From: Bacillota bacterium
GTDB taxonomy: Bacteria > Bacillota > DTU025
Assembly: GCA_050951805.1 (NCBI GenBank)
Contig: JBMNJT010000002.1
Span: 1,184,001-1,248,000, forward strand
DNA length: 64,000 nucleotides
Direction: 5' to 3'
In this document: positions 5,565 through 59,147 of the stretch, piece after piece
Layout of the letters: every line of letters begins with the position of its first letter
Position numbering within the stretch: position 1 is the first letter of the stretch
Notes under the pieces: generated by a model
The model's database searches: none
Told to the model about the DNA's origin: nothing
The model's input: only the letters and a program-made list of their open reading frames with translations
Program-made: the position numbers and the translations under genes

Positions 5565-5577
5565 GTTGATCGAACAG

Positions 5578-6180
5578 GATAGGTGGCGCAGTATCCTAGT
5601 CGGTGTTGGCTTTCTCGAAGACGGGGATAAAATACCGTTAAGGGCACATCGATGAAGTCCCTTGTGCTGGCTTTCGACGCCCAGTTGGGGGTTGGTGCAG
5701 GGGGTTAAGGTTGTGGGGCGATCCGCAATGGCATGTGGGCGTTGACCCTGCTTCCGTGGAGACCCAAGTTCGTGGGGTTGAAAAGCTTTACGGCTTGGGG
5801 TGAACCTGCATGTCGGTACTGGCCCTGGTGGGCCCAATGGTGCTGGGTGCAGCGTAGCCTGCCTTGAGTGGATGTGCGGGATGGCGGGTGCCAAGTCATT
5901 GTCTCCCCGGCCAAGGAACATGACCTTTTGCCGCTTGAAAGCCCATCTGCAAAAGAGGATAGAGAATGGCCAGCATTGCCGAGGAAAACTCCTAGGCTGT
6001 TTGCATTGCATGGCGCTCTGGGGATTACGGTGTGATCTAAGTGGCAATCCAGTTGCTCCTTCGGCGACGAGGAGAACCTGTCGTAAAGGGAAACCGCCCG
6101 CCGGCGACGGTAGGGCGCACAGGGGGGAAAACCTGCTGGACCTCAAGTCACAATATTTACTCAGGGCGCTGCCACCTATC
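5578..6180 (+). ncRNA. ole: OLE RNA (ornate, large, extremophilic), about 603 nt
   Basis: 5' GATAGGTGGC pairs with 3' GCCACCTATC; OLE-like segments GCGCAGTATCCTAGTC, AAGGGCACATCGATGAAGTCC, CAATGGCATGTGGGCGTTGACCC, GGGAAAACCTGCTGGACCT; diagnostic position after ispA and immediately before oapA-dxs. Confidence 0.9.
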
Positions 6181-6262
6181 GGTTTATTTATTCATCCGAC
6201 TATTTCGGATCCATATTATGCGCATTCAGGCTGAAGCCCATATTTTTTGAGGTGAACATGAC

Positions 6263-32868: not shown

Positions 32869-33219
32869 ACCGCCCCACGCCGAAAGGCAGGGGATTACTG
32901 ATTGGTGCACTGTGGCTGATGGTTAGGCAAAAGTGGTGAATAGAACACCTCACGTTTACGAGGCCTATGGGTACGTCACACCTAAAGCATGCTAGATCTC
33001 GAGAAGGGTGTTTGGAGGGCCAATAGGGCACATAGCGTGTCCATGGGTTTCAGCTATTTGACAAGGTTGAGTATATGTGCCTTGTCTTCGCAAGACGTAT
33101 CACAGGCTATTGTGACATTTGGCACAAGGATCTCGGCATCGGCCAATGCTGTACGAAAGGAGGGAAAACGCTACTTCCCCCCATATCTGAGTGAGGGGGT
33201 CTTTGTAGCGTGACATTTG
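32865..33219 (+). mobile_element. Miniature degraded IscB/omega-RNA (IS200/IS605 superfamily) relic, copy 1
   Basis: 5' GTAAACCGCCCCACGCCGAAAGGCAGGG resembles the omega-RNA/HEARO 5' hairpin; IscB-like peptides PHVYEAYGYVT (32948-32980) and HGFQLFDKVEYMCLVFARRITGYCDI (33042-33119); 3' end shared with copy 2. Confidence 0.75.
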
Positions 33220-34065
33220 ATGAAGGACGTTGGCCGTATTGCCGTGACTACATCCGCGCGGGGCGGACGCCATCAGGTTGATCTTGGAATAAGACTTGCA
33301 CACGAGCTTGGTGCGCCTTTCATAACGAGGGCAGGGAGATCGTTGCAATCTCTTGCGGACGCTTACAGCGAGGATGGTCGTGGCGAGCTGGAAGCGTTCA
33401 TGGTTGTTGAGGCGGACAGGATAAGCGTTGTGAGGTTGGCGGATGCGGGCAGGCGCAGTGCGGAGTTGTTCTTCCATCCCGGAATGGCCTTGTCGAGGAT
33501 TCGTCGACTGAAGCAAGGTGGAGTAGACCAGATGGTTGAGGCCATGGGAATATCCTCTGGCGATCACGTGCTCGACTGCACGATCGGCTTGGCGTCAGAC
33601 GCTATAGTCTCTTCATGGGTTGTGGGAAGCCGTGGACGGGTTGTGGGAGTGGAGGTCAGTCCGGTTCTTTCCATTATCACCCGTGAGGGGCTCACGAGCT
33701 ACACCGAGGCAGATCCAGACGTCCTAGATGCAATGAGGCGCATAGAGGTGGTCGCCTCAGATCATCTGGACTATCTCAGGTCATGTGCAGACAAGAGCTT
33801 TGATGTAGTCTCCTTCGATCCCATGTTTAGGGAGCCAGTGACGTCATCCGCAGGTATTGCCCCCATACGGCCCTGGGCATGCCACACGCCACTTTCCGTG
33901 GAAGCGCTTTCGGAGGCTTGCAGGGTGGCACGCAGACGTGTCGTCGTCAAGGACAGGGCGGACGGGGATGAACTTGACAAGCTGGGCGTGGGCCATAAGA
34001 TCGGGGCAAAGAAGAGTCGGCAGGAATATGGGGTGATATTCGTTGAAGGAGAGCGAAAGGACTGA
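33220..34065 (+). CDS. Class I SAM-dependent methyltransferase (RsmJ-like family found beside mutL-miaA)
   Basis: LFFHPGMA, VLDCTIGLASDA, FDVVSFDPMF, ARRRVVVK. Confidence 0.85.
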   Translation: MKDVGRIAVTTSARGGRHQVDLGIRLAHELGAPFITRAGRSLQSLADAYSEDGRGELEAFMVVEADRISVVRLADAGRRSAELFFHPGMALSRIRRLKQGGVDQMVEAMGISSGDHVLDCTIGLASDAIVSSWVVGSRGRVVGVEVSPVLSIITREGLTSYTEADPDVLDAMRRIEVVASDHLDYLRSCADKSFDVVSFDPMFREPVTSSAGIAPIRPWACHTPLSVEALSEACRVARRRVVVKDRADGDELDKLGVGHKIGAKKSRQEYGVIFVEGERKD

Positions 34066-41488: not shown

Positions 41489-42610
41489 TCATTGTCTATT
41501 ATGTGCCATGTGGCACCTGACCAAGTGATCATCTTGAGGTTCGGTGCTAGCACCCGAGGCCGTATCTGAGTGAGATCCGCCAAAGGCGCTAGCGGAGCCG
41601 AAAGATAGCGACAGCAATTCTGGTGACGATTTTTTGCAGACCGGGGCGGCCTGTTCGCATCTTGGCCAGAATTGACACGCGTTTGCAATGTGTGCCTGGC
41701 TGCTATCGATCATGCTCTCGGCTTCAATAGATGTAGCGAAAGACGCCTGCGCCGGACTGTGCCCCCGGCCGTTTCGGTTCCGGCGGCGACGCCCCCCAGT
41801 TCCCGGTATTGCCCCAAGTAGCTGACGTGTAAACGGATGGAGCGGCCTTTCGTATAGAGCGTCGGTTGGGGCAAACTCAACGATTTGGCCTCCGTACATT
41901 ACCGCTACCCTGTTGCACATGTGATAGACCACGCGCAGATCGTGGGCGATGAGGAGGTATGATAACCCGTACTCGTTCTGCAAGTCTTCAAGAAGCGAGA
42001 TTATCTGAGCCTGCACCGACACATCAAGGGATGATAGGGGTTCGTCAGCGACTATGAACTCGGGCTGAGTGGCAAGCGCCCTCGCTATTGCAACGCGCTG
42101 GCGTTGGCCGCCGCTGAGTTGATGAGGATAGCGCTCAAGGTAGTCAGGTGAAAGCCCTACCCGGGTCATCAAGGAACGTGCTTCCTCGTAGCGGTGGCGG
42201 GGAGGAACGCCTCTGGCAGCAAGCGCGACATCGATTGTTTGACGCACAGTATATCTCGGGTTGAGAGAGCTGTAAGGGTTTTGGAATATGATCTGGGCGC
42301 GATGTTTCAATTCTGAACGATCGATCGACTTCTGTCCCCAGATAGGGGTATTGCCATAATACACTTGCCCTGATGTTGGCTGGAGAAGCCCCACCATGAC
42401 GCGGCCAAAAGTACTCTTGCCACAGCCTGACTCGCCAACGAGACCTACTGTTTCACCAGGGTATATCTCCATGCTCACGGCGTCCACGGCCATTACTTGT
42501 CTGGCGGAGAGGCCTGTCAGCCTGCGTGAAAGGAGTGATTCAGACATTACAAAATGCTTGGATACACCTACCGCTGAAACCAGGGGCTTGCGACAGGTCT
42601 GCGCAGTCAT
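41489..42610 (-). CDS. Oligopeptide/dipeptide ABC transporter ATP-binding protein (OppF/DppF-like)
   Basis: [37 protein letters not shown]-terminal Cys cluster. Confidence 0.92.
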   Translation of the reverse strand: MTAQTCRKPLVSAVGVSKHFVMSESLLSRRLTGLSARQVMAVDAVSMEIYPGETVGLVGESGCGKSTFGRVMVGLLQPTSGQVYYGNTPIWGQKSIDRSELKHRAQIIFQNPYSSLNPRYTVRQTIDVALAARGVPPRHRYEEARSLMTRVGLSPDYLERYPHQLSGGQRQRVAIARALATQPEFIVADEPLSSLDVSVQAQIISLLEDLQNEYGLSYLLIAHDLRVVYHMCNRVAVMYGGQIVEFAPTDALYERPLHPFTRQLLGAIPGTGGRRRRNRNGRGHSPAQASFATSIEAESMIDSSQAHIANACQFWPRCEQAAPVCKKSSPELLSLSFGSASAFGGSHSDTASGASTEPQDDHLVRCHMAHNRQ

Positions 42611-42778: not shown

Positions 42779-42828
42779 AGATCAAAGAAGAGTAGATCAT
42801 AGAGGGTATGATCATGCGCCGCCAGGCG

Positions 42829-42965
42829 CAATCGCTGAATCTTCCCAGCAGGGGAGAGCGGGGGACCCATATCATATGGCAGGGGCGAATCCTGCAGGTG
42901 TGCAGGTAGGGCTAATTCCTTCAGCCCGAGCCCGTCAGCTAACCTCGTAAGCGCTAAGAAGGGAC
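42829..42965 (+). ncRNA. Cyclic di-AMP (ydaO/yuaA) riboswitch
   Basis: AATCGCTGAATC...GAGCGGGGGACCCA...GGGGCGAATC...TAGGG...CCCGAGCCCGTCAGCTAACCTCGTAAGCG matches the ydaO consensus. Confidence 0.92.
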
Positions 42966-42973
42966 GCCCATTT

Positions 42974-47983: not shown

Positions 47984-50140
47984 TCAACTGGAGTAGAAAA
48001 CTCTCTTCACGCGGATGCCTATCCGGCTGAGCAACTCATTGGTTATCGTTCCGGCATCGGCAGCTGCTTGTTCTGCCGTGATCTCCGCAGAACCGTCTCT
48101 GCCGATCAATGTGGCGACATCGCCGCGCTTCACGTCCGGGATCCCGGTGACGTCGACCATCAGCTGATCCATGCATATTCGGCCTATAATGGGTGCACGG
48201 CATCCATGGATCAATACTGAGCCTCTGCCGCCCGAGAGATTGCGTGGAATCCCGTCCCCGTACCCGATTGGGAGGATGGCGACACAAGTATCACGCTCGG
48301 CAATGAAGTGGCGACCATAGCCGACGCTTTCCCCGGCTGTAACGGTTCTAACAAGCGAAACCCGTGCCTTCAACGACAGGACATTTTTTATGTCCAGGTG
48401 GAGCCTGGTCTGATCATGGGGCGAGCTCAGTGTGCCGTACAATGCAATCCCGACTCTTGCATAATCGCATTTAAGCATTGGATAGTTAAGGAGGCCATAA
48501 CTGCTTTGAACGTGTATCTTGGGAAGGGTGACGTTTTGCTCCCGGAGCGTCTCCAGGAGATGGTAAAACCTATCTATCTGCATTTCTGTAAATTGAGCGT
48601 CTTCCGGTTCCATGCTATCTGAGACGGAAAGGTGAGTGTAGATTCCGTCAATACAAAGATTCTTGAGGCCGAAGATGCTGGCAATCTCCGATACATGATC
48701 CCAGGGCTCTCCCATACGGTGCATGCCGGTGTCCACTTTGATGTGGACGTGTATTGGTTTCCCGCAAGCATTGAGGCGCACAGCGTGTTCTCGATCGACG
48801 ACTGTCTGCGACAAACGGTAGCGGGCGAGCTCGCCAGCTCTTTCGGGCACAGTGTAGCCGAGTATCAGGATTGTTCCTCTGATTCCATGTTTTCGCAGGC
48901 GAATTCCTTCATCGATAGCGGCAACCGCGAAGGCATCGATTCCTATCTGATTCAGATGTTTTGCAACTTCCACATCGCCATGCCCGTATGCATTGCCTTT
49001 GACGGCAGCCATTAGTTTACATCCATCCGGCATAGCTTTGCGCAGGACTTGGACGTTGTGGCTCAGGCAGGTTAGGTCGATCTCAGCCCACGCCCTGTCC
49101 ATAGTGGCGTGTTCAGGAGCGAGCTCTCTGTTTTGAAAGACTCGCAGCAACAACAGGATCGCTTCTGCGGCAGCAAGGGAAGATACTGCTACGGCAAGAA
49201 AATGGATGACGCTGTTAGCTATCAGCCATCGTTTGAGGCCCGCGGCTTTGGCAAGCCATCGAACGAGTATGATCATCATGGGATGGACTAAATAGATGAG
49301 CGTAGAGATGTCCCGCAGCTCTTTGCGCGTTTTGCCATTGATGTGTAGCAGGCTCTGAAAAAGGAGAGCCGCGCAGGGCAGGAGCGTAAGGTACATGCTA
49401 TCGTGCCTTGGGATCCCGCAGGTGTGAAGGAGAAGCGCTTCTGCCAGCATAAGAAGAAACGCAACTGCCAGCCCCGTAAAGCACGCCTTTGGCTGCAGGC
49501 GCCTCGCTGGCGGGGCCATCATGGCGCCAAGCAATAGAAAGACCGGAGCGAAGAAAAGTCCGTTCCGCGTGTAGTCCGAAACTGTGAAGACTGATGCATA
49601 GAACGATTGCAGGAATGGCACTCTTTCTGCAATTCCGTAGTAGCTGTCGCCGAACAGGCCGACCAGGTAGAGGATGAAGGCTATGCCAAAGGCGTGGCCA
49701 GGGCCGAGCCTTTTCAGCAACAGCCAGGCAATGGTCGCGCCGATCATCGCTGCCGGCAGATACCATAAGTGATAAAACGTGCCGTCAAACACAATGTCCT
49801 TCAGCAGTTCTTTGGCCAGATGTTCAGTTCTGAAGGTTCCCGCATAGATGTTGACAGGGAGATACAGCAAAGTTGAAATGGCGTACAACGCGGCCGTTTT
49901 CCTCAGAAAGCGAAACAGCCTTGCGCGGTCCGCTTCGCTGTCTGTCGCCTTTCCACGAAACAGGAAAAATCCTGAGGTCATGAAGAAGAACGGCACTGCT
50001 ACACGGGCAATTATCCTTGTCAGGATGAAATCAGCGGTCCCGTTCACTGACGACAGGGGGGAAGTGTGGTTAGCCACTACGAGAAATGCAGCGATTATTC
50101 TGAAGTAATCAATACCGGGGAACTCTTCCTGCAGATTCAT
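47984..50140 (-). CDS. vanT: Membrane-bound serine racemase VanT (vanG type)
   Basis: N-terminal acyltransferase-like TM domain (GIDYFRIIAAFLVVANHTSP) fused to a racemase domain (RAWAEI, AAVKGNAYGHG, KVDTGMHRMG, GRICMDQ). Confidence 0.93.
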   Translation of the reverse strand: MNLQEEFPGIDYFRIIAAFLVVANHTSPLSSVNGTADFILTRIIARVAVPFFFMTSGFFLFRGKATDSEADRARLFRFLRKTAALYAISTLLYLPVNIYAGTFRTEHLAKELLKDIVFDGTFYHLWYLPAAMIGATIAWLLLKRLGPGHAFGIAFILYLVGLFGDSYYGIAERVPFLQSFYASVFTVSDYTRNGLFFAPVFLLLGAMMAPPARRLQPKACFTGLAVAFLLMLAEALLLHTCGIPRHDSMYLTLLPCAALLFQSLLHINGKTRKELRDISTLIYLVHPMMIILVRWLAKAAGLKRWLIANSVIHFLAVAVSSLAAAEAILLLLRVFQNRELAPEHATMDRAWAEIDLTCLSHNVQVLRKAMPDGCKLMAAVKGNAYGHGDVEVAKHLNQIGIDAFAVAAIDEGIRLRKHGIRGTILILGYTVPERAGELARYRLSQTVVDREHAVRLNACGKPIHVHIKVDTGMHRMGEPWDHVSEIASIFGLKNLCIDGIYTHLSVSDSMEPEDAQFTEMQIDRFYHLLETLREQNVTLPKIHVQSSYGLLNYPMLKCDYARVGIALYGTLSSPHDQTRLHLDIKNVLSLKARVSLVRTVTAGESVGYGRHFIAERDTCVAILPIGYGDGIPRNLSGGRGSVLIHGCRAPIIGRICMDQLMVDVTGIPDVKRGDVATLIGRDGSAEITAEQAAADAGTITNELLSRIGIRVKRVFYSS

Positions 50141-50901
50141 CCCAAATGCCTCCATAATGTCACCACAAAGCCATCATCGTTGTTCCCGGATACCTGAAAA
50201 GGGATTCTGTCCGGCAGTTCGATTTCAACCTCCTGACCTGGTTCGACGGGGACATGAAAAATCTCGAAGTCGTAGTTGTCGTGCTTGATCCGAAGATGTG
50301 CTCCGTCGAAGGGAAAGTGCTTGAGGCAGTCAGTATACTCCTCCAGCGTAAACTCATTTCCCCTGATCAGTTGGGAATGGGGATAGCCAACGTAGCGAAA
50401 ATGCCAGGGCTCGTGTGCAATTTGGGTGATGGATTCCCGTCCAGCCGGGTAGCGCTGGATGAATCCATACTGTACTGACAGCTTCCGGAACTCTTGACAG
50501 ATTCCGGTGTAAGGGAAGTATGGCCGGATGAAATCGATGTCCGGCCTGTTTTCTCCCAAATCGATTGCTAGTCCGGTCTGGTGCTCGCTGCATCCCACAG
50601 TTGCGACGTATTTCTTCGTAAACTCCTTCCCGTTTTCGCGCATGGAATCGGCGTATATAGCCTGCTGTTCCTGCATCGTGCGATAACCGCTGACTGGTAC
50701 GATTTGATCCTCGCATTGCAAGAGAGCAGCCACTTCTGCCAGCATCCTTGCTGTTTGCCTTTCTAGAACGATCTCGGGAAAGGCAGGGCGAATAGGCACA
50801 AGCACTTCATCGGCTGGTGTCGTCGCAAGTGGATGAGAGGGATTGACGAGGATGAGGTTGCCCTTGCCAATGTCCTCTGCATAGAGTTTCAGCGTTCTCA
50901 T
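50137..50901 (-). CDS. vanXY: D,D-dipeptidase/D,D-carboxypeptidase VanXY (M15B)
   Basis: LILVN, VSGYR, SEHQTGLAID, EPWHFRYVG. Confidence 0.9.
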   Translation of the reverse strand: MRTLKLYAEDIGKGNLILVNPSHPLATTPADEVLVPIRPAFPEIVLERQTARMLAEVAALLQCEDQIVPVSGYRTMQEQQAIYADSMRENGKEFTKKYVATVGCSEHQTGLAIDLGENRPDIDFIRPYFPYTGICQEFRKLSVQYGFIQRYPAGRESITQIAHEPWHFRYVGYPHSQLIRGNEFTLEEYTDCLKHFPFDGAHLRIKHDNYDFEIFHVPVEPGQEVEIELPDRIPFQVSGNNDDGFVVTLWRHLG

Positions 50902-51953
50902 CGGTCGATCGCCAGCCTTATAAGCGTGTCTACAATCTGCTCAAAGCTCATTCCAATCCCCTTTAGCATGTTGGGATACCGGCTATGGGTGGTGAAACCG
51001 GGTATGGTGTTGACTTCATTGAAGACGATATCTTCTTCAGGAGTGAGGAACATGTCAACTCGCGCGTACCCCGAACACTCCAGAGCCCTGTAGATGACGA
51101 TAGCTGTTTGCTTGATGCGTGCAGCAGTCTCCACATCGATCCGCGCAGGCATATGGATCTTCGAAGTTTTCAACGTATATTTCTCGGTGTAATCGAAGAA
51201 GCCGTTGCAGAGCTCGATCTCGTCCACCTCTCCAATGGTGAGTACGTCATTGCCGAGGACAGCACAGCCGACCTCGAATCCATCAATTGATTCCTCTATT
51301 ACTACTTTTCTATCGTGTTCGAAGGCAGCACTGACTGCACAGGCAAGCCCGCTTTCCTGGGAAACCTTAGTAATGCCGAAGGAGGAGCCGGCATTTGCCG
51401 GTTTCACAAAGAGTGGGTATTTCAGGTGCGCAATCCGCTTAAGCAGCTCCGCTTCGGAGACGTAAGAGTGCAGCACAATCGATGGAGGTGTTTTTACTCC
51501 AGCCAGGCTGACTATTCTGTGAGCTATGTCCTTGTCCATGCACATGGCTGAGCTCAATACGCCACATCCAACACAGGGGATGCCCGCCATTTCCAGTAGG
51601 CCTTGAACTGTTCCGTCCTCGCCGTTCTTCCCATGTAGAACCGGAAAGGCAACGTCGATTCGGGTCGTGGTTACCTTGTTGCCGTGAAATTCAAGTATCC
51701 CATGGGTATTTCGATCGGGAGAAATGATGGCCGGAACGGAGACGCTGTGATCCATCCACGTATTGTCCTTGATCTGCTCCACAGGACCGGTGAATCTCAT
51801 CCAAGCTCCCTGGCGGGTAATCCCGAGCAGTATCAAGTCGTATTCTTCAGGGTTGAGGTTGGTGATTACCGAATAGGCCGACTGCAGCGATATTTCATAC
51901 TCCGTGGAAGATCCGCCGAATATCACGGCTACTCTTGTTCGTTTCATGTTCAT
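50898..51953 (-). CDS. vanG: D-alanine--D-serine ligase, VanG type
   Basis: FGGSSTEYEISLQSA, LHGKNGEDG, GSSFG, FFDYTEKY (EKY signature of D-Ala-D-Ser ligases), NTIPGFTTHSRYP. Confidence 0.92.
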   Translation of the reverse strand: MNMKRTRVAVIFGGSSTEYEISLQSAYSVITNLNPEEYDLILLGITRQGAWMRFTGPVEQIKDNTWMDHSVSVPAIISPDRNTHGILEFHGNKVTTTRIDVAFPVLHGKNGEDGTVQGLLEMAGIPCVGCGVLSSAMCMDKDIAHRIVSLAGVKTPPSIVLHSYVSEAELLKRIAHLKYPLFVKPANAGSSFGITKVSQESGLACAVSAAFEHDRKVVIEESIDGFEVGCAVLGNDVLTIGEVDEIELCNGFFDYTEKYTLKTSKIHMPARIDVETAARIKQTAIVIYRALECSGYARVDMFLTPEEDIVFNEVNTIPGFTTHSRYPNMLKGIGMSFEQIVDTLIRLAIDR

Positions 51954-52147
51954 GACTCCTTGTCTCTACGGTCTTGGCGTTTACGTGGTGTTCTGCGGGT
52001 TGACAGCGGCGGGGGATGAAGGCCTCCGCAAGCTGTTTCCTTCTCAAACACGCAACGTAATCTATGAAGTAGAAACGCCTGCGTGATTCGTTAATCTAAC
52101 CTTATCCGAATCAGGCAGGCTAAAAAGTAGGCTCTGCTTGTAGAAAT

Positions 52148-52162
52148 CTTAAGAAATACTTA
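52148..52162 (-). promoter_or_regulatory. Putative VanR (OmpR-type) binding direct repeat upstream of vanG
   Basis: Minus strand reads cgTAAGtatttctTAAGattt, i.e. TAAG repeated with an 11-bp period, about 200 bp upstream of vanG. Confidence 0.4.
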
Positions 52163-52449
52163 CGGACGACTCATTGTTCTGTTAATCTCGGCGGCCGGTG
52201 CATTTGATTGTGCTCAAGGTGGTTTCACCCGATTGGCGAATTGTTATGGGATAAAAGTGTGTGGGGGAAGCCAACACAAGACAGGAAAGCAACATGGGAG
52301 GAGAGATATGAGGAACGAGATGGGTGAGCCGATAGCCAATCACGGGTATGGCTCCGCATGTCTCGCGCAATTCGGATGACATGGCGAATTGCGGCGACGT
52401 GATTCGCGTCGCGAGTGCATGGTGCAGAGCGGGGGCAATTGCATCATGA

Positions 52450-53604
52450 TTATCCAACTGTTCCATCTTGATTCGGGAGCGTAACGGTGAAAACCGTTCG
52501 TTCCTCGTTGCTTGTGGCTGTGATGTTGCCTCCATGTGCAGTAACGATCTTCTTGGCGATGGCAAGGCCCAATCCTGCACCGCCAGAATTCGTAGAACGA
52601 GAGGCATCAAGCCGGAAGAACTGGTCGAAGATCGTCTCTAGCTTGGCGGATGGAATGGGATCGCCTTGATTGGCAAAGACGATGATTACGCTTTGATCTT
52701 CCTGGCGCGCGGAGATGCGGATGATGCTGCCTCGATAGCTGTAGGCGGCGGCGTTCTTGAGGATGTTGTTGAAAACGCGGGCCAACTTGTCTGCATCTCC
52801 CCACAATGTGAGGCCATCAGGTGCATCAACGACCGCTTTCTTGCCCTCGGGCTCCAGCATGGGATAGAATTCATCCGCTACTTGGTTCAACATGAAGGAG
52901 AGGTTTATCTTGCCCTTGTTCAGTACGATGGATTGCAGGTTGAACCTAGTGATCTCGAAGAACTCATCGATCAGCTGCTCCAGCCGGTAGGCCTTTTCCA
53001 AGGTGATGCCCACGTATTTGGCTCTTTGCTCCGGCGGCATGTCGGGGGCTTCATCCAGAAGGCTCAGGTAGCCAATGACGGAGGTGAGAGGCGTTTTGAT
53101 ATCGTGTGCCAGATAGACCACGAGGTCATTCTTGCGTTGCTCCGCTTCCTGCGCATCCCATTTTTGTCTTTCCAGCGTTCCTTTTATCTTGTTCAGCTTT
53201 GTTTCCATGTGTGCTAGTTCAGGTGATAGGATTATGTCGCTGCCGGGTTTGTCAACAAGCTGATCGATCCCGGCACTGATCTCGTCGAAGTATTTGGCAA
53301 ACCATGACAGCGAGAACCTGAGGAAAATCAGTATGAAAACGATGATAGCGATGAACACGTATAGAAGGGCATTGTCGCTGAATACTTCTTGCCAAATGCG
53401 ACCAGCTTCATCGTTGGACAGGTGAAATGCTTTTTCTAGGAAGTTCACAACGTTGGGCCGGAAACGCCACATGGTTAGTAGGCACAGAAAAAACACTACT
53501 GCAACTGCGGAGAGAACAATCAGAAGCATCCTGCGAAAGACTTTCTTCTTTAGTCTTGAGTAGTCGCCTTTGTCCCTTTTCCTATTTCTCAATCTTGTAG
53601 CCAA
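52450..53604 (-). CDS. vanS: Sensor histidine kinase VanS
   Basis: Two TM helices; YLAHDIKTPLTS, DEFFEITR, NNILKNA, GGAGLGLAI. Confidence 0.92.
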   Translation of the reverse strand: MATRLRNRKRDKGDYSRLKKKVFRRMLLIVLSAVAVVFFLCLLTMWRFRPNVVNFLEKAFHLSNDEAGRIWQEVFSDNALLYVFIAIIVFILIFLRFSLSWFAKYFDEISAGIDQLVDKPGSDIILSPELAHMETKLNKIKGTLERQKWDAQEAEQRKNDLVVYLAHDIKTPLTSVIGYLSLLDEAPDMPPEQRAKYVGITLEKAYRLEQLIDEFFEITRFNLQSIVLNKGKINLSFMLNQVADEFYPMLEPEGKKAVVDAPDGLTLWGDADKLARVFNNILKNAAAYSYRGSIIRISARQEDQSVIIVFANQGDPIPSAKLETIFDQFFRLDASRSTNSGGAGLGLAIAKKIVTAHGGNITATSNEERTVFTVTLPNQDGTVG

Positions 53605-54277
53605 CTCCCCATACCGTCTTTATGTATTTGGGATTTTCCGCAGAATCGTTCATCTTCTCCCTCAGATGGCGGATGTGCACCATGACCGTGTTGTTACTAG
53701 TAAAATACTTCTCACCCCATACCTCGCGGAACAACTCTTCGGAACTGACCACGCGGCCCCGATTGGATGCCAACATCCACAGGATGTCAAATTCTGTCGG
53801 GGTTAGGGATAACGGCCTCTCGTTGAGCGTGCATTCATGGGCATCCTTGTCAATGACCAAGCCTGCAGACGCGATCACATTCTCCTCATCAGCTGGTTCA
53901 GAGGGATTGTACCTTGTGTACCTGCGAAGCTGCGCCTTAACTCGGGCCACCATCTCGAGCGGTCGGAATGGTTTTGTAATATAATCGTCTGCGCCCAGTG
54001 TGAGGCCTGTGATCTTGTCGATCTCCTCATCCTTCGCCGTGAGCATGATGATAGGGAAGTTGTGTTTCTCCCGGATCTTTTGGCAGATCTCAAACCCGGT
54101 CATGTCGGGGAGCATCACGTCCAGGATTGCCAGATCCAGTGGTTCACTTTCTACAAGGGCTAAGGCATCCTGCCCGTTATGGGACTTGAAAACAATGTAG
54201 TTCTCGTTTCTTAAGTACAGTTCAATCAAGTCTGCGATGGCTTTCTCATCATCAACAACTAGTATACGGTCATTCAT
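53582..54277 (-). CDS. vanR: Response regulator VanR (OmpR family)
   Basis: ILVVDDE, LDVMLPD, GADDYITKPF, NTVMVHIRHLREK, KTVWGVGY. Confidence 0.93.
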   Translation of the reverse strand: MNDRILVVDDEKAIADLIELYLRNENYIVFKSHNGQDALALVESEPLDLAILDVMLPDMTGFEICQKIREKHNFPIIMLTAKDEEIDKITGLTLGADDYITKPFRPLEMVARVKAQLRRYTRYNPSEPADEENVIASAGLVIDKDAHECTLNERPLSLTPTEFDILWMLASNRGRVVSSEELFREVWGEKYFTSNNTVMVHIRHLREKMNDSAENPKYIKTVWGVGYKIEK

Positions 54278-54670
54278 CAAACATCACGCTACGGAGATTC
54301 CCCTTCAGGTGTGGGGAGGAAGTAGCGTTCCCCCTCCTTTCGCACAGCACTGTGCTTGCAGCTTCCTTTGAACATATCTGGACGCTTTGTTGGCTACTCC
54401 TTGTGCACTTGCCTGATTCGGTTCTTAGCTTGTTTCGAGAGATCCCAAGTGCCCGGCTCTACCGTTGAGTTGCCACTTGCATCTGTACGATGGAATTTCC
54501 CAAGCCTTGCACATGTGTTTGCCTGCTCGGTGATGTACCCATGAGTTACGCCAACATTCGGGTGTGCTTTTCGTGACCGAAATCCCAACGCATTATCCCC
54601 AAGAACACCGCAACGGAAAGGTCAGCGGGGGCTCTTGCAAGCCCCTACCTTTAGGCTTGGAGTGGTTGAT
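54278..54670 (-). mobile_element. Miniature degraded IscB/omega-RNA (IS200/IS605 superfamily) relic, copy 2
   Basis: Minus-strand 5' end ATCAACCACTCCAAGCCTAAAGGTAGGGGCTTGCAAGAGCCCCCGCTGACC resembles the omega-RNA 5' stem; IscB-like peptides AVFLGIMRW (54611-54585) and HPNVGVTHGYITE...LGKFHRTDA...SGN...RQVHK; 3' end shared with copy 1. Confidence 0.8.
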
Positions 54671-55244
54671 CGTCCTCAATTCATTATACCTTTCCTGACG
54701 GGCCTGTGCCCTACGACATCATCTACATCCTGGATCCGAGATGAGATGCTCGATCCGTGGATAATCCGTGTGACGGCTGCGGATTGTGGGTCGCAGGACA
54801 GACTGACAATGGCGAAGCTGTCTCTAGTGCCATGAATTAACCTGATGATTCGAAGAAGGGCTGTTGCCTTACCGAAGCGAAGACAGATGGAGGCTCTGAA
54901 GGAGATTGTATTTTGAGGAGTGGGAGAGGGCTGAGTCAACCGGCGCAAGCTTGTCAGTGATCAACAGAGCTTCTGGGGAAATCGAGACGGACTGGTACAG
55001 CCGCCTCACAGGAGTGGAGTTGGAGCAGGCAAGATAAGAATGGGGGAGGGGCACGTAGTATTCGCAAAGAAGAGGGCCTTATGGCATTAGTTGTCATGGC
55101 TAGAGCAAGTTCATGTCCAATGTGTTAGTGCCTACAGCTTCTTTCTTTGAATCGCAGAGCCCTTGCTTTGGGAAACCTAGCTGCTATCCCACAGCAATGG
55201 CGAGGAAGCTTGGTTTGACTGTAGCTATCCGCATTCATGAGCAC

Positions 55245-55273
55245 TTGCAAGCATTTGGAAATGTCAATATCTT
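55245..55273 (+). promoter_or_regulatory. sigmaA-type promoter of the MerR gene
   Basis: TTGCAA, 17-bp spacer, TATCTT. Confidence 0.5.
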
Positions 55274-55292
55274 AAGTGGTGAGGTGAAAAAC

Positions 55293-56135
55293 GTGGATCT
55301 CCTGCCGATTGGCAAGATGGCAGCTTTGAATCACACTTCAGTTCAGACTTTGAGGTATTATGACAAGATCGATTTGCTGAAACCGTTATATGTTAATCAG
55401 GATACAAACTACAGATACTACGATATCAAGCAGAGCGCCATACTAGATATGATTGGGTATATGAAGTCTTTGGGAATGTCCTTGGAGCAGATAAAGGAGC
55501 AATTTGATAAGGAAGATATTGAGGCGATCAAGGATATTCTCGAGCGGCAGAGCAAGAACATCGATGAGGAGATCAGGAAGCTGCATCATATGAAAAAAGG
55601 CGTAGAGGCTTGCATACGGAATTACGATAGGTATTTGCAGATGCCCCAGGAGGGCGAGATAACCTTCGAGTTCATACCGGATAGAAAAATCTTCTGCTAC
55701 GACGGGAAAGTAAATATCTACGACCACGGGCTCGACAATTACGAATACATCCTGAGAGAGCTAAAGAAACAGGTAATCATCGAAGATCTGCCCATGGTTT
55801 ACTTTTGCAACGTAGGATCTATATTGCGAAAAGAGATGATTGATGCAGGCAGATTCGTCTCTTCAGAGATATTCGTGTTTGTCGACAACGACTTTGAGGA
55901 GCAAGAGGGCATAGAGATAATACCTGCAGGAGATTACGTGTGCATACATTTTCACAGCTTTTGGAACGAAAAGGCGAACGCCCGAAAGCTGTTTCATTTC
56001 ATACATGAAAACGGATACGAGATAGTGGGAGACTACATATGTGAAGTAGTCGCGGAACTACCGATCTTTGACAATAACGAACGAAATATGTTTGTTAAGC
56101 TGCAAATACCGATACAAGCCCCAAGAGATGGTTGA
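55293..56135 (+). CDS. MerR family transcriptional regulator (BmrR-like, GyrI-type effector domain)
   Basis: IGKMAALNHTSVQTLRYYDKIDLLKP, NYRYY, LGMSLEQIK; IPAGDYVC. Confidence 0.9.
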   Translation: MDLLPIGKMAALNHTSVQTLRYYDKIDLLKPLYVNQDTNYRYYDIKQSAILDMIGYMKSLGMSLEQIKEQFDKEDIEAIKDILERQSKNIDEEIRKLHHMKKGVEACIRNYDRYLQMPQEGEITFEFIPDRKIFCYDGKVNIYDHGLDNYEYILRELKKQVIIEDLPMVYFCNVGSILRKEMIDAGRFVSSEIFVFVDNDFEEQEGIEIIPAGDYVCIHFHSFWNEKANARKLFHFIHENGYEIVGDYICEVVAELPIFDNNERNMFVKLQIPIQAPRDG

Positions 56136-57552: not shown

Positions 57553-59147
57553 TGTCAACCGACTGTGAAAATGTCACCCCTTTTGGGGGTTAATCCGACT
57601 GAGAAAATGTCACCCCTGTGGTTGTGTTCCGCTGGCGACCCGCGCATTATGCTCAGGCTCGCGGCCGAGTCAAGGATCGGCCTGCGGCCTGCTTTGCTCC
57701 TTGACTCGGCCTCTGCGCCTGATTGAGATTAGGGTGCCGCCAGCGGGAAACTGTTGTTTTGTCTGTTTTTGGTCTGGGTCGCCTCGCGTGCTTGCTGAAT
57801 GTGTTGTTGACGCTCGTAGCTCGCACGTTTCCATGGATGATCATCCGGGGGCTTCCATGGCATCCTCGGGGCTTTAGGCTCTTGGGCTGCAGCCGAGGTT
57901 GAGTCTTCGATTGCCGGTGTGGAGTTGAACTCGGCTAGGCTGTAGCATTTTCCCTTGTAGAGTGCGTTGATTGACCCGTCCATGTGCGTAAGCACGAAAA
58001 CGGGATCCTTCCTGGCCAATCCGACAACGTGGCCGTATGCATCCAGAAGACGGAACTTGGTGCCATGGTAGGATATGAGTGATCCTCCCAGCCCTTGACG
58101 AGATTCCCTGATCGAAAGAATCATGTCGAGATCCATGTCGGGAGTCAGAAGACGAAAAGCGGGTGTCTCATCAGCTGCGGGAACGGCAAAACGGGCGTTG
58201 TACCTAGGAATATATCCGGGAAGGAACTGATTTGCCTGTTCGATTGTATTGATTCCGGCAAGGCGCATCTCAATAGGCAGCCTTCCCTGAAGCGTCTCCC
58301 ATGCGCGCTCAATACGGCCCTTTGCTTGAGGCGAATGCGCTGGTATGTGAGTGATCTGTAGTTCATCGAGAATGCGGCCTATCTGGGTAAGATTAACCCG
58401 CTTTCCCTGGAGTTGTTCTTCGATGGTGAGCTTGTCCATCTTGGGCGAGAAAAACATGGTATGGCGGTCAGAATACAAGCACAGCGGTATGCCGTTGTTC
58501 TCGAGCACCTGACGGAACACATGGAGGTATCCTATGATGTCTTCCTGAGGCCTGAAATACAGGCCCAGGATGGCTCCGGTGGCATCATCGATGATCCCAT
58601 GAAGCGACATAGCTGGGCCTCTTCCTTCGAGCCAGTCATAGGGACTGGCATCGCATTGGAGCAAGATCCCCGATTGGGGTTTTCGCTCTCGCATGCGTCT
58701 GTGGCGCGGGGCTCTTTTGGTGGAGCACACTATCCCGGCCCTCTTAAGCAATCGTTGTACAGTGCGTGGACTCACCGAGATCTGATAGCCCTCTGCCATG
58801 AGCTCGGACATATGGGTGCAATTTGCGTCTTTCAGGTCGGTCTGAGCTAGCTCGATGATGCGTGCCGCGATTGATGGGTCTAAAGCATGCTTGGGCTTGC
58901 GTCCGGCATTGCCATGCCCTAGGGCCTGGATTCCGTTACTCTGCATCTCCTTTTTGATCCGTTTGATCTGGCGGACACTTAATCCAAGCATGTTGGCAGC
59001 CTGCGCGTTTGTGATTTGCCCGGCGGCAAGCTGATCCATTACGAAGACCCTCTTCCGTAATTTTTCCGTCAAGATGATGTCCCCCTTGTTCATGGGTGAC
59101 ATTATCTCAGACGCGTTATGGGGTGACAATATCACAGACGCGTAACA
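57553..59147 (-). mobile_element. IS1202-family (IS481-related, formerly ISNCY) insertion sequence, 1595 bp, with 16-bp target duplication
   Basis: TGT...ACA ends; imperfect IRs with repeated subterminal TGTCACCC motifs; direct repeat GGAAATCTATGGCGTG at 57537-57552 and 59148-59163. Confidence 0.9.
57729..59093 (-). CDS. DDE transposase (IS1202/ISNCY type)
   Basis: HTH LGLSVRQIKR, HGNAGRKP, LLQCDASPYDWL, IDDATG, YSDRH, SPQAKGRIER. Confidence 0.93.
   Translation of the reverse strand: MNKGDIILTEKLRKRVFVMDQLAAGQITNAQAANMLGLSVRQIKRIKKEMQSNGIQALGHGNAGRKPKHALDPSIAARIIELAQTDLKDANCTHMSELMAEGYQISVSPRTVQRLLKRAGIVCSTKRAPRHRRMRERKPQSGILLQCDASPYDWLEGRGPAMSLHGIIDDATGAILGLYFRPQEDIIGYLHVFRQVLENNGIPLCLYSDRHTMFFSPKMDKLTIEEQLQGKRVNLTQIGRILDELQITHIPAHSPQAKGRIERAWETLQGRLPIEMRLAGINTIEQANQFLPGYIPRYNARFAVPAADETPAFRLLTPDMDLDMILSIRESRQGLGGSLISYHGTKFRLLDAYGHVVGLARKDPVFVLTHMDGSINALYKGKCYSLAEFNSTPAIEDSTSAAAQEPKAPRMPWKPPDDHPWKRASYERQQHIQQAREATQTKNRQNNSFPLAAP

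Follow-up and report, generated by a model that had tools for sequence, protein, structure and literature searches.

How is the regulator gene of a glycopeptide-resistance cluster expressed when 393 nt that no library names lie between its candidate promoter and its first codon, and what are these 393 nt? The question is posed by a minus-strand cluster of the vanG type in a 64,000-nt stretch of DNA (the window; contig C2, 1184001–1248000) from a Bacillota bacterium whose genome comprises 2.75 Mb in 8 contigs and is 97% complete. The vanR gene and a divergent MerR-type gene (55113–56135, plus strand) enclose an 832-nt gap. Its vanR-proximal part, 54278–54670 on the minus strand (the relic), is a fossil of an IscB/omega-RNA element, correctly recognised by an earlier, sequence-only reading of the window and lying at a place typical for its family. 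Our best explanation, to which as a whole we assign a probability of about 0.82, is that of a gutted, non-autonomous ISC/IscB transposon of the IS200/IS605 family with the order omega RNA, iscB, hairpin end. The relic marks an ordinary landing place of a known element family rather than a new kind of system.

The layout claimed by the sequence-only reading is exact. A TATAAT box (54688–54683) is followed by 12 nt, GAATTGAGGACG (54682–54671), and then by ATCAACCACTCC from 54670. At the other end, ...GTAGCGTGATGTTTG closes the relic at 54278 and ATGAAT, the start of vanR, begins at 54277; the terminal letters GATGTTTG stop directly 5' of this ATG. The identification as a relic that kept both ends and lost its middle also holds, carried by a match to the 5' end of HEARO, a family of hairpin ends and compensatory base changes within that family.

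The upstream end of the relic is the right end of the transposon (54621–54670, minus strand, starting with ATCA) and corresponds to the first ~50 nt of an omega RNA, which Rfam holds as HEARO (RF02033) and detects upstream of iscB in 12 of the 15 sources supplied. We built an nhmmer profile from the first 60 nt of 11 HEARO RNAs of same-phylum IscB loci and ran it on the whole genome. Homology to an IscB omega RNA is found by this search, the best genome-wide match lying at 54669–54621 (19.0 bits, E=0.0033). Here the relic tracks the HEARO consensus nearly motif for motif. About 50 of the 211 model positions of the omega scaffold are kept (~160 are deleted), and this right-end piece is single-copy in the genome. 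All 11 scaffolds start with GTCA and the relic starts with ATCA, which argues that the proposed boundary, gaggacg/ATCAACC, is right and agrees with the 5'-GTCA terminus of the family. A second nhmmer match (42562–42593, E=0.031) falls within a gene for an ABC ATPase, on the opposite strand, and was dismissed as chance.

The downstream end belongs to a small family of repeats. Only the last ~85–95 nt of the gap between vanR and the MerR-type gene recur in the genome, in five other places found by BLAST and a further one found with a covariance model. We assigned this segment (54278–54339, minus strand) to the left end of the transposon, 3' of iscB, from the seven-copy family, the covariance model and the compensatory changes. 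In the vanR copy it comprises GGAGG (54337–54333), an outer stem (54328–54322 with 54292–54286), an inner stem of a C-run with a G-run, and an 8-nt linker (54285–54278). All six BLAST-found copies share AAAGGAGGG, the 7-bp outer stem (ACGCTAC/GTAGCGT), the C-run/G-run inner stem and an 8-nt linker, and across 11 aligned ends 9 of 11 hairpin pairs show compensatory changes. The covariance model, built from 17 sequences, scores the vanR site at 47.9 bits, with the site itself in the training set. The same succession of parts (GGAG, outer stem, TTCCTCC, inner hairpin, TTCC, outer stem, short linker) is found 3' of intact iscB, both at 6 of the 18 same-phylum loci that we inspected and at many metagenome loci. 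Our metagenome set held 80 loci with IscB relatives; 5 cut by a contig end were dropped, leaving 75 with the iscB stop, 58 of them with at least 330 nt downstream. The left-end model gave 48 matches in the 80 loci. Removal of two on the minus strand, three that were partial or cut, and one upstream of iscB left 42 plus-strand, full-length matches, each just 3' of iscB. Judged by these sequence features, the 3' repeat is an IscB transposon end. A pattern scan of genome contigs for hairpin ends returned 17 loci, none of them related by blastn, and was rejected as chance.

The position of the relic with respect to vanR is that of its family's target. The six BLAST-found copies all end in ...TG/ATGAA and are divergent beyond it. 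At vanR, this ATGAA (54273–54277, minus strand; TTCAT, the transposon-adjacent motif or TAM, on the other strand) is the start codon plus 2 nt. According to the available text of Kapitonov, Makarova & Koonin 2016 (PMC4810608), ISC transposons have a 5'-GTCA terminus and subterminal hairpins and are inserted at N/ATGA with no target duplication; iscB is their sole gene, and the element is non-autonomous. In the available part of Meers 2023 (bioRxiv 10.1101/2023.03.14.532601), the TAM of GstIscB is 5'-TTCAT-3' and adjoins the left end, and the omega scaffold comes from the right end with the guide lying outside, so that outside transcription must read into the element; gene-less elements with ISGst-type ends are also described. 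Read on the other strand, ATGAA is TTCAT; the ATGAA that follows each copy is therefore the target in the host, and the hairpin end corresponds to the left end, in iscB sense. The insertion thus lies at the family target, to the base before the vanR ATG, and the empty site that had been proposed (...gaggacg/ATGAAT) agrees with N/ATGA. The 12 nt at 54671–54682 (minus strand) represent the pre-insertion flank and the would-be position of the omega RNA guide.

The sister copies repeat this arrangement at other genes. The ATG after each BLAST-found copy opens a different Pfam gene, namely vanR, SAM_MT, Rrf2/IscR, an ABC-2 permease, a zf-HC2 anti-sigma gene and DUF155. The seventh copy (C2:302100–302165, plus strand) belongs to another subfamily (outer stem GGCGCA/TGCGCC), and ends in /GTGAAT at the start of an open reading frame (ORF; at least 233 aa) whose N-terminus resembles a signal peptide. 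Two of these genes have empty sites in relatives. In three relatives, iscR is preceded by (G)GAGGTGA, 4–5 nt and then ATGAA, with no insert. A sister relic in the window (32869–33224, plus strand, 351 nt) fills the gap between mutL and the SAM_MT gene (PF04445), with its ATGAA (33220–33224) at the start codon, and in two same-genus genomes mutL and SAM_MT overlap (ATGA), again with no insert. The orthologous vanR locus is absent from two same-genus genomes, and the empty-site comparison for vanR itself is thus without an example; in two same-family genomes vanR is preceded by GAGGTGA-N5-ATG. The genome's most complete relic (C2:826100–826811; L013 about 875–1582), a ~560-nt compressed iscB pseudogene, separates an ABC ATPase gene from the gene of its ABC-2 permease and ends in /ATGAAT, where the permease ORF begins. 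The sister copies are of unequal length and content, and only about 80–190 nt of the left end are common to them. As side observations, the start of the relic at 32869–33224 (ACCGCCCCACGCCGAAAGGCAGGGG), immediately downstream of the mutL stop, resembles an omega RNA truncated at its 5' end. In another genome of the same genus (G002), a left-end relic (L009:375–422) follows a PspC-like gene and ends in /ATGAAG, its ATG in frame and 8 codons upstream of a likelier ATG with its own GAGGG.

Between the two ends of the vanR relic lies a putative, eroded 3' part of iscB (54340–54620, minus strand; about codons 334–417 of a 429-position profile) that contains stops and a frameshift. We scored it by frameshift-tolerant chaining to an IscB profile of 93 sequences and compared the scores with those of random genomic segments and shuffles. 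By this measure the most complete relic is clearly degenerate iscB at C2:826185–826756 (78.5 versus 42.5±5.1; 0/150 random segments, z about 7), with the PLMP region, RuvC-I (DAGPQTTG), the bridge helix (GWLAPS) and the C-terminal domain in order. The whole 431-nt vanR relic region scores 45.7 versus 32.5±4.9, a value that none of 150 random segments reaches (highest 45.6). The peptides quoted in the sequence-only reading are present in translated frames: AVFLGIMRW in one, and HPNVGVTHGYITE..LGKFHRTDASGN..RQVHKE in another that is stop-free for 75 aa (54397–54621). This 75-aa stretch aligns ungapped to IscB profile positions 334–408, in the C-terminal region, and the next frame to 403–417; segments GTWDLSKQAKNRI and AQGVANKASRYVQRK align to 390–417. 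The middle appears to keep a faint, marginal iscB 3' coding signal (p about 0.03). A colinear alignment of the 75-aa frame with the C-terminal part of IscB makes RuvC-III an improbable identity for the HRTDA motif, and we dropped that assignment.

Several results weigh against the identification. Taken alone, the middle 286 nt show marginal coding homology (33.6 versus 25.8±3.8), a score that 26 of 1000 random segments reach, as do 21 of 500 shuffles. Pfam and NCBIfam searches with the 75-aa and a 32-aa stop-free peptide return no family at E<=10, and a six-frame hmmsearch of the genome with the IscB profile (--max) detects none of the relics at E<100. Rfam places no HEARO match on the relic at gathering score or E<=10 (54100–55300), where it gives chance snoRNA-type matches only. 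The first base of the relic is A where the family has G. Lastly, the relics were located via the left end, so that its invariable presence is partly ascertainment, and relics devoid of a left end would be missed. In addition, a repeat search found nothing, window-wide or in 54660–55120; comparison of the relic region by blastn and tblastx with an intact IscB locus from a genome of the same family yielded no significant match; and NF040563, run against the bacterium's own genome, has no match at the relic.

No gene for IscB, TnpB or Y1 transposase/TnpA was found in this 97% complete genome, with 0 matches for the Y1 transposase family (PF01797). The relics are therefore fossils, and the one at vanR would be immobile and would make no working guide RNA. 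Decay may have proceeded by one internal deletion plus point decay: some 1.2–1.3 kb, between roughly position 50 of the omega RNA and roughly codon 333 of iscB, would have been lost, leaving the 393-nt fossil.

What does an insertion at this position do to vanR? An element that inserts at N/ATGA(A) would land between the vanR ribosome-binding site and the first codon and would leave the reading frame intact. We observed precisely this outcome: the native ribosome site is displaced, the vanR frame is intact, and the relic is part of the transcript. A Shine-Dalgarno-like GAGGA (54677–54673, within GAGGACG) stands directly 5' of the relic, now 396 nt upstream of the vanR ATG. None of the six genes preceded by BLAST-found relics, nor the seventh, has a purine-rich motif in its last 15 nt, and the five orthologues seen in relatives all carry (G)GAGGTGA 4–5 nt before ATG. 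Translation of vanR would then start via an unpaired, A/U-rich start region or via the GGAGG of the left end, brought near by its hairpin.

The simpler of these routes, and one to which we give not far from even odds, makes the relic neutral junk in the leader: vanR would be translated without a Shine-Dalgarno motif through its A/U-rich, unpaired start, and GGAGG and hairpin would be idle. Structure prediction favors this account, as the vanR ATG is predicted to be 95% unpaired and GGAGG mostly paired, and as the leader as a whole is no more structured than shuffles; regulators also need little protein, and the GGAG motif is absent from 13 of the 42 metagenome left ends. What it leaves unexplained is the contrast between the relic-preceded genes, with no purine-rich motif close by, and their uniformly equipped orthologues, and the frequency of the motif among left ends. 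Of the 42 metagenome left ends, 29 have GGAG or GAGG at a distance of 50–72 nt from the end of the element, mostly at 52–59 nt and in 7 of the 29 outside the iscB frame; by our own estimate, chance would give about 19%.

These points suggest the other route, which we consider possible at appreciably less than even odds: GGAGG, the ~45-nt hairpin and the 8-nt linker may together replace the ribosome site that the insertion displaced. If the hairpin is closed, all that lies between GGAGG and the vanR ATG is about 1 nt 5' of the hairpin and the 8-nt linker. In five of the six copies the hairpin is the predicted lowest-energy fold, with GGAGG 42–56% unpaired. The vanR copy itself speaks against such a role. 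Its GGAGG is predicted to pair with UUCCUCCCC (probability unpaired 0.18), the fold with the hairpin enforced is 2.3 kcal/mol worse than the lowest-energy fold, and GGAGG lies 55 nt from the ATG along the chain; the 13 left ends devoid of GGAG count here too. With GGAGG mostly paired in the vanR copy, weak VanR translation would follow.

The transcript was examined in four RNA-library (metatranscriptome) runs from three studies, whose assembled contigs show presence, not transcript ends. One contig (X16, 53000–54637) runs from vanS through vanR into the relic, with adapter after it; two others cover 54068–54667 (X15) and 54336–54665 (X17). Contigs of two studies thus end at 54665 and 54667, 16–18 nt downstream of TATAAT; an agreement to within 3 nt hints weakly at a 5' end near 54667–54680. 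No run gives cover at 54701–55100, an absence of cover that is not proof of silence. X17 covers the MerR side (55105–55295), and with 54701–55100 uncovered beside it, flat DNA carry-over is unlikely. On these observations, which support it weakly, the relic very probably serves as a ~390–400-nt 5' leader of vanRS, with transcription that would start just upstream of the relic, consistent with TATAAT (54683–54688, minus strand; a -10-like box and candidate vanRS promoter element, from sequence reading), and run through vanR and vanS. The sequence-only reading had called this leader structured; that part did not stand, the fold giving z=-0.32 with 39 of 100 shuffles folding at least as well. A change in the inducibility of glycopeptide resistance, which it also put forward, would be pure inference. 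The contig of the MerR-type gene begins at 55105, 8 nt before its ATG, and a very short leader is possible there.

We regard it as improbable that the vanRS promoter lies inside the relic or far upstream, with a coincidental TATAAT and a relic that is only partly, or not specially, leader. A promoter scanner did not call the TATAAT box as a sigma-70-type site and there is no -35 match, contig ends differ from transcript ends and cannot show where transcription starts, and before the insertion TATAAT would have stood only 12 nt from the ATG, odd for a promoter. Against a distant or internal start, the contigs of two studies end at nearly the same nucleotide, leaving no loose end, and three runs are covered continuously from the relic into vanR with nothing on 54701–55100. 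Very improbable, finally, is a still-mobilisable miniature element (PATE-like, with both ends and no gene) in place of a dead fossil: both ends are kept and gene-less elements with ISGst-type ends appear in the available part of Meers 2023 (10.1101/2023.03.14.532601), but the genome yielded no Y1 transposase, the terminal G has become A, and there is no set of near-identical gene-less copies, the right-end piece being unique and the sisters, unlike in length and content, sharing ~80–190 nt.

Landing on start codons extends beyond vanR. All seven relics in the genome abut an ORF start, six at ATGAA and one at GTGAAT. By a rough count, the genome has 6711 ATGAA sites: 5428 fall within ORFs, 234 are in frame among the first ten codons of an ORF (>=150 aa), and the other 1049 belong to neither class. 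If insertions were merely tolerated at non-disruptive ATGAA sites, about 18% would be expected at start codons; the observed figure is 6/6. Among the metagenome left ends with at least 320 nt downstream, 17 of 36 abut the start of a co-directional ORF (>=100 aa) at the target NTG, 12 of the 17 having been picked for that as training cases; among independent left ends the figure is 5 of 24, plus two with a start 11 nt further on. In 6 of 58 metagenome loci, all intact elements (L074, L103, L106, L114, L120 and L133), the TGA that stops iscB also belongs to the [A/G]TGA start of the host gene. Such a stop/start overlap would couple translation of nuclease and host gene. In many other loci the iscB stop falls within the CTAAAG loop of the hairpin, 31 nt short of the element end. 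A crude count of ATGA-starting ORFs after iscB stops (24/58) versus ordinary gene stops of the present genome (458/1741) was too blunt to be used alone.

These data led us to consider, as a speculation that is on balance unlikely, that IscB/ISC elements of this clade are built to park on start codons, with a left end that keeps the host gene translated. The target N/ATGA (TAM TTCAT) would be the commonest start-codon context, and the iscB stop would often fall in or just before the host [A/G]TGA. The conserved GGAG, the hairpin and a 7–10-nt linker would sustain translation of the downstream gene once the insertion has separated it from its own ribosome site, and selection would retain the left end after the nuclease decays. 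If so, at least seven genes, including vanR and iscR, owe their translation start region to a transposon end. Our literature search found no paper on start-codon landing or on a transposon end as ribosome site; the 2009 HEARO paper may bear on the ATGA/start-codon point, and the words 'start codon' have 0 occurrences in the available text of Kapitonov 2016 (PMC4810608) and of the 2026 OMEGA review.

For annotation, the identification accounts for a 393-nt stretch hitherto unnamed and explains why vanR and six other genes, including that of the Fe-S regulator IscR, lack a normal ribosome-binding site. For resistance biology, it means that transcription of vanR and vanS, the regulators of a vanG-type cluster in an environmental anaerobe, passes through a transposon fossil. 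For transposon biology, it adds a fully decayed, transcribed example of IscB elements landing on start codons. The only potentially new part would be the terminal GGAG and hairpin as a replacement ribosome site, a testable idea suggested by the sequence.

By profile matches, the minus-strand genes form a vanG-type glycopeptide-resistance cluster, since VanR, VanS, VanG and VanT score above their NCBIfam cut-offs; Pfam also underlies the gene calls. VanR (53582–54277, 231 aa) scores 405 bits with NF033117 (cut-off 350) and aligns to the VanR-A model end to end (1–231 versus 1–231). VanS (52450–53604) scores 401.7 (cut-off 400), the D-Ala-D-Ser ligase VanG (50898–51953) 570 (495), and VanT (47984–50155) 577.7 with the VanT-G C-terminal model (460). 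A VanXY-like peptidase (50137–50901) falls below both relevant cut-offs, at 268 for VanXY-G (500) and 210 for VanXY (250). The ~500-nt gap between vanS and the ligase gene (51954–52449) has no convincing ORF, and a resistance-gene promoter or another decayed gene is possible there. About 3 kb from the cluster, a 468-aa ORF (57729–59135, minus strand) with HTH_29/HTH_32 and a weak rve_3 match is IS-transposase-like. The window also holds a full-length OLE RNA (5567–6191, plus strand, 470.6 bits) and a c-di-AMP riboswitch (42823–42967, plus strand, 93.4 bits). Landfill and sludge metagenomes contain the same stretch; like the OLE RNA, this fits an uncultured anaerobic host.

Ribosome sites that are split and bridged by a hairpin occur in phage T4 genes 38 and 25. 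The vanR leader would resemble them in its proposed geometry only, that is, Shine-Dalgarno motif, hairpin, short linker and AUG; its hairpin is longer (~45 nt) and is a transposon end. The vanG-type operons of Enterococcus faecalis consist of vanU-R-S and vanY-W-G-XY-T. The present cluster has in common with them vanR, vanS, the vanG ligase and vanT above the cut-offs, with the regulators upstream of the ligase. By contrast, its VanXY-like peptidase scores below the cut-offs, vanU, vanY and vanW were not seen here, the host is an uncultured environmental anaerobe, and the leader of vanR is a transposon fossil. The right end of that fossil is like HEARO RF02033 in its 5' stem and two small hairpins and unlike it in the deletion of ~160 of 211 model positions and the lack of an Rfam match. 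With the N/ATGA-target ISC transposons ISC1-1_MA and ISC2-1_MS, as given in the available text of PMC4810608, the relic shares a GTCA-type terminus, subterminal hairpins and insertion 5' of ATGA without target duplication. It differs from them in what survives, only about 50 nt at the 5' end and some 350 nt from the 3' part, in its first base, A, and in a genomic setting where neither transposase nor intact IscB was found. A further close parallel is ISGst5/GstIscB of Geobacillus stearothermophilus (available part of 10.1101/2023.03.14.532601). Whereas the Gst element is intact and active and the vanR relic is a fossil, the two are alike in features: a TTCAT TAM next to the left end, an omega scaffold from the right end with the guide outside the element, and a bias for the orientation of the upstream gene.

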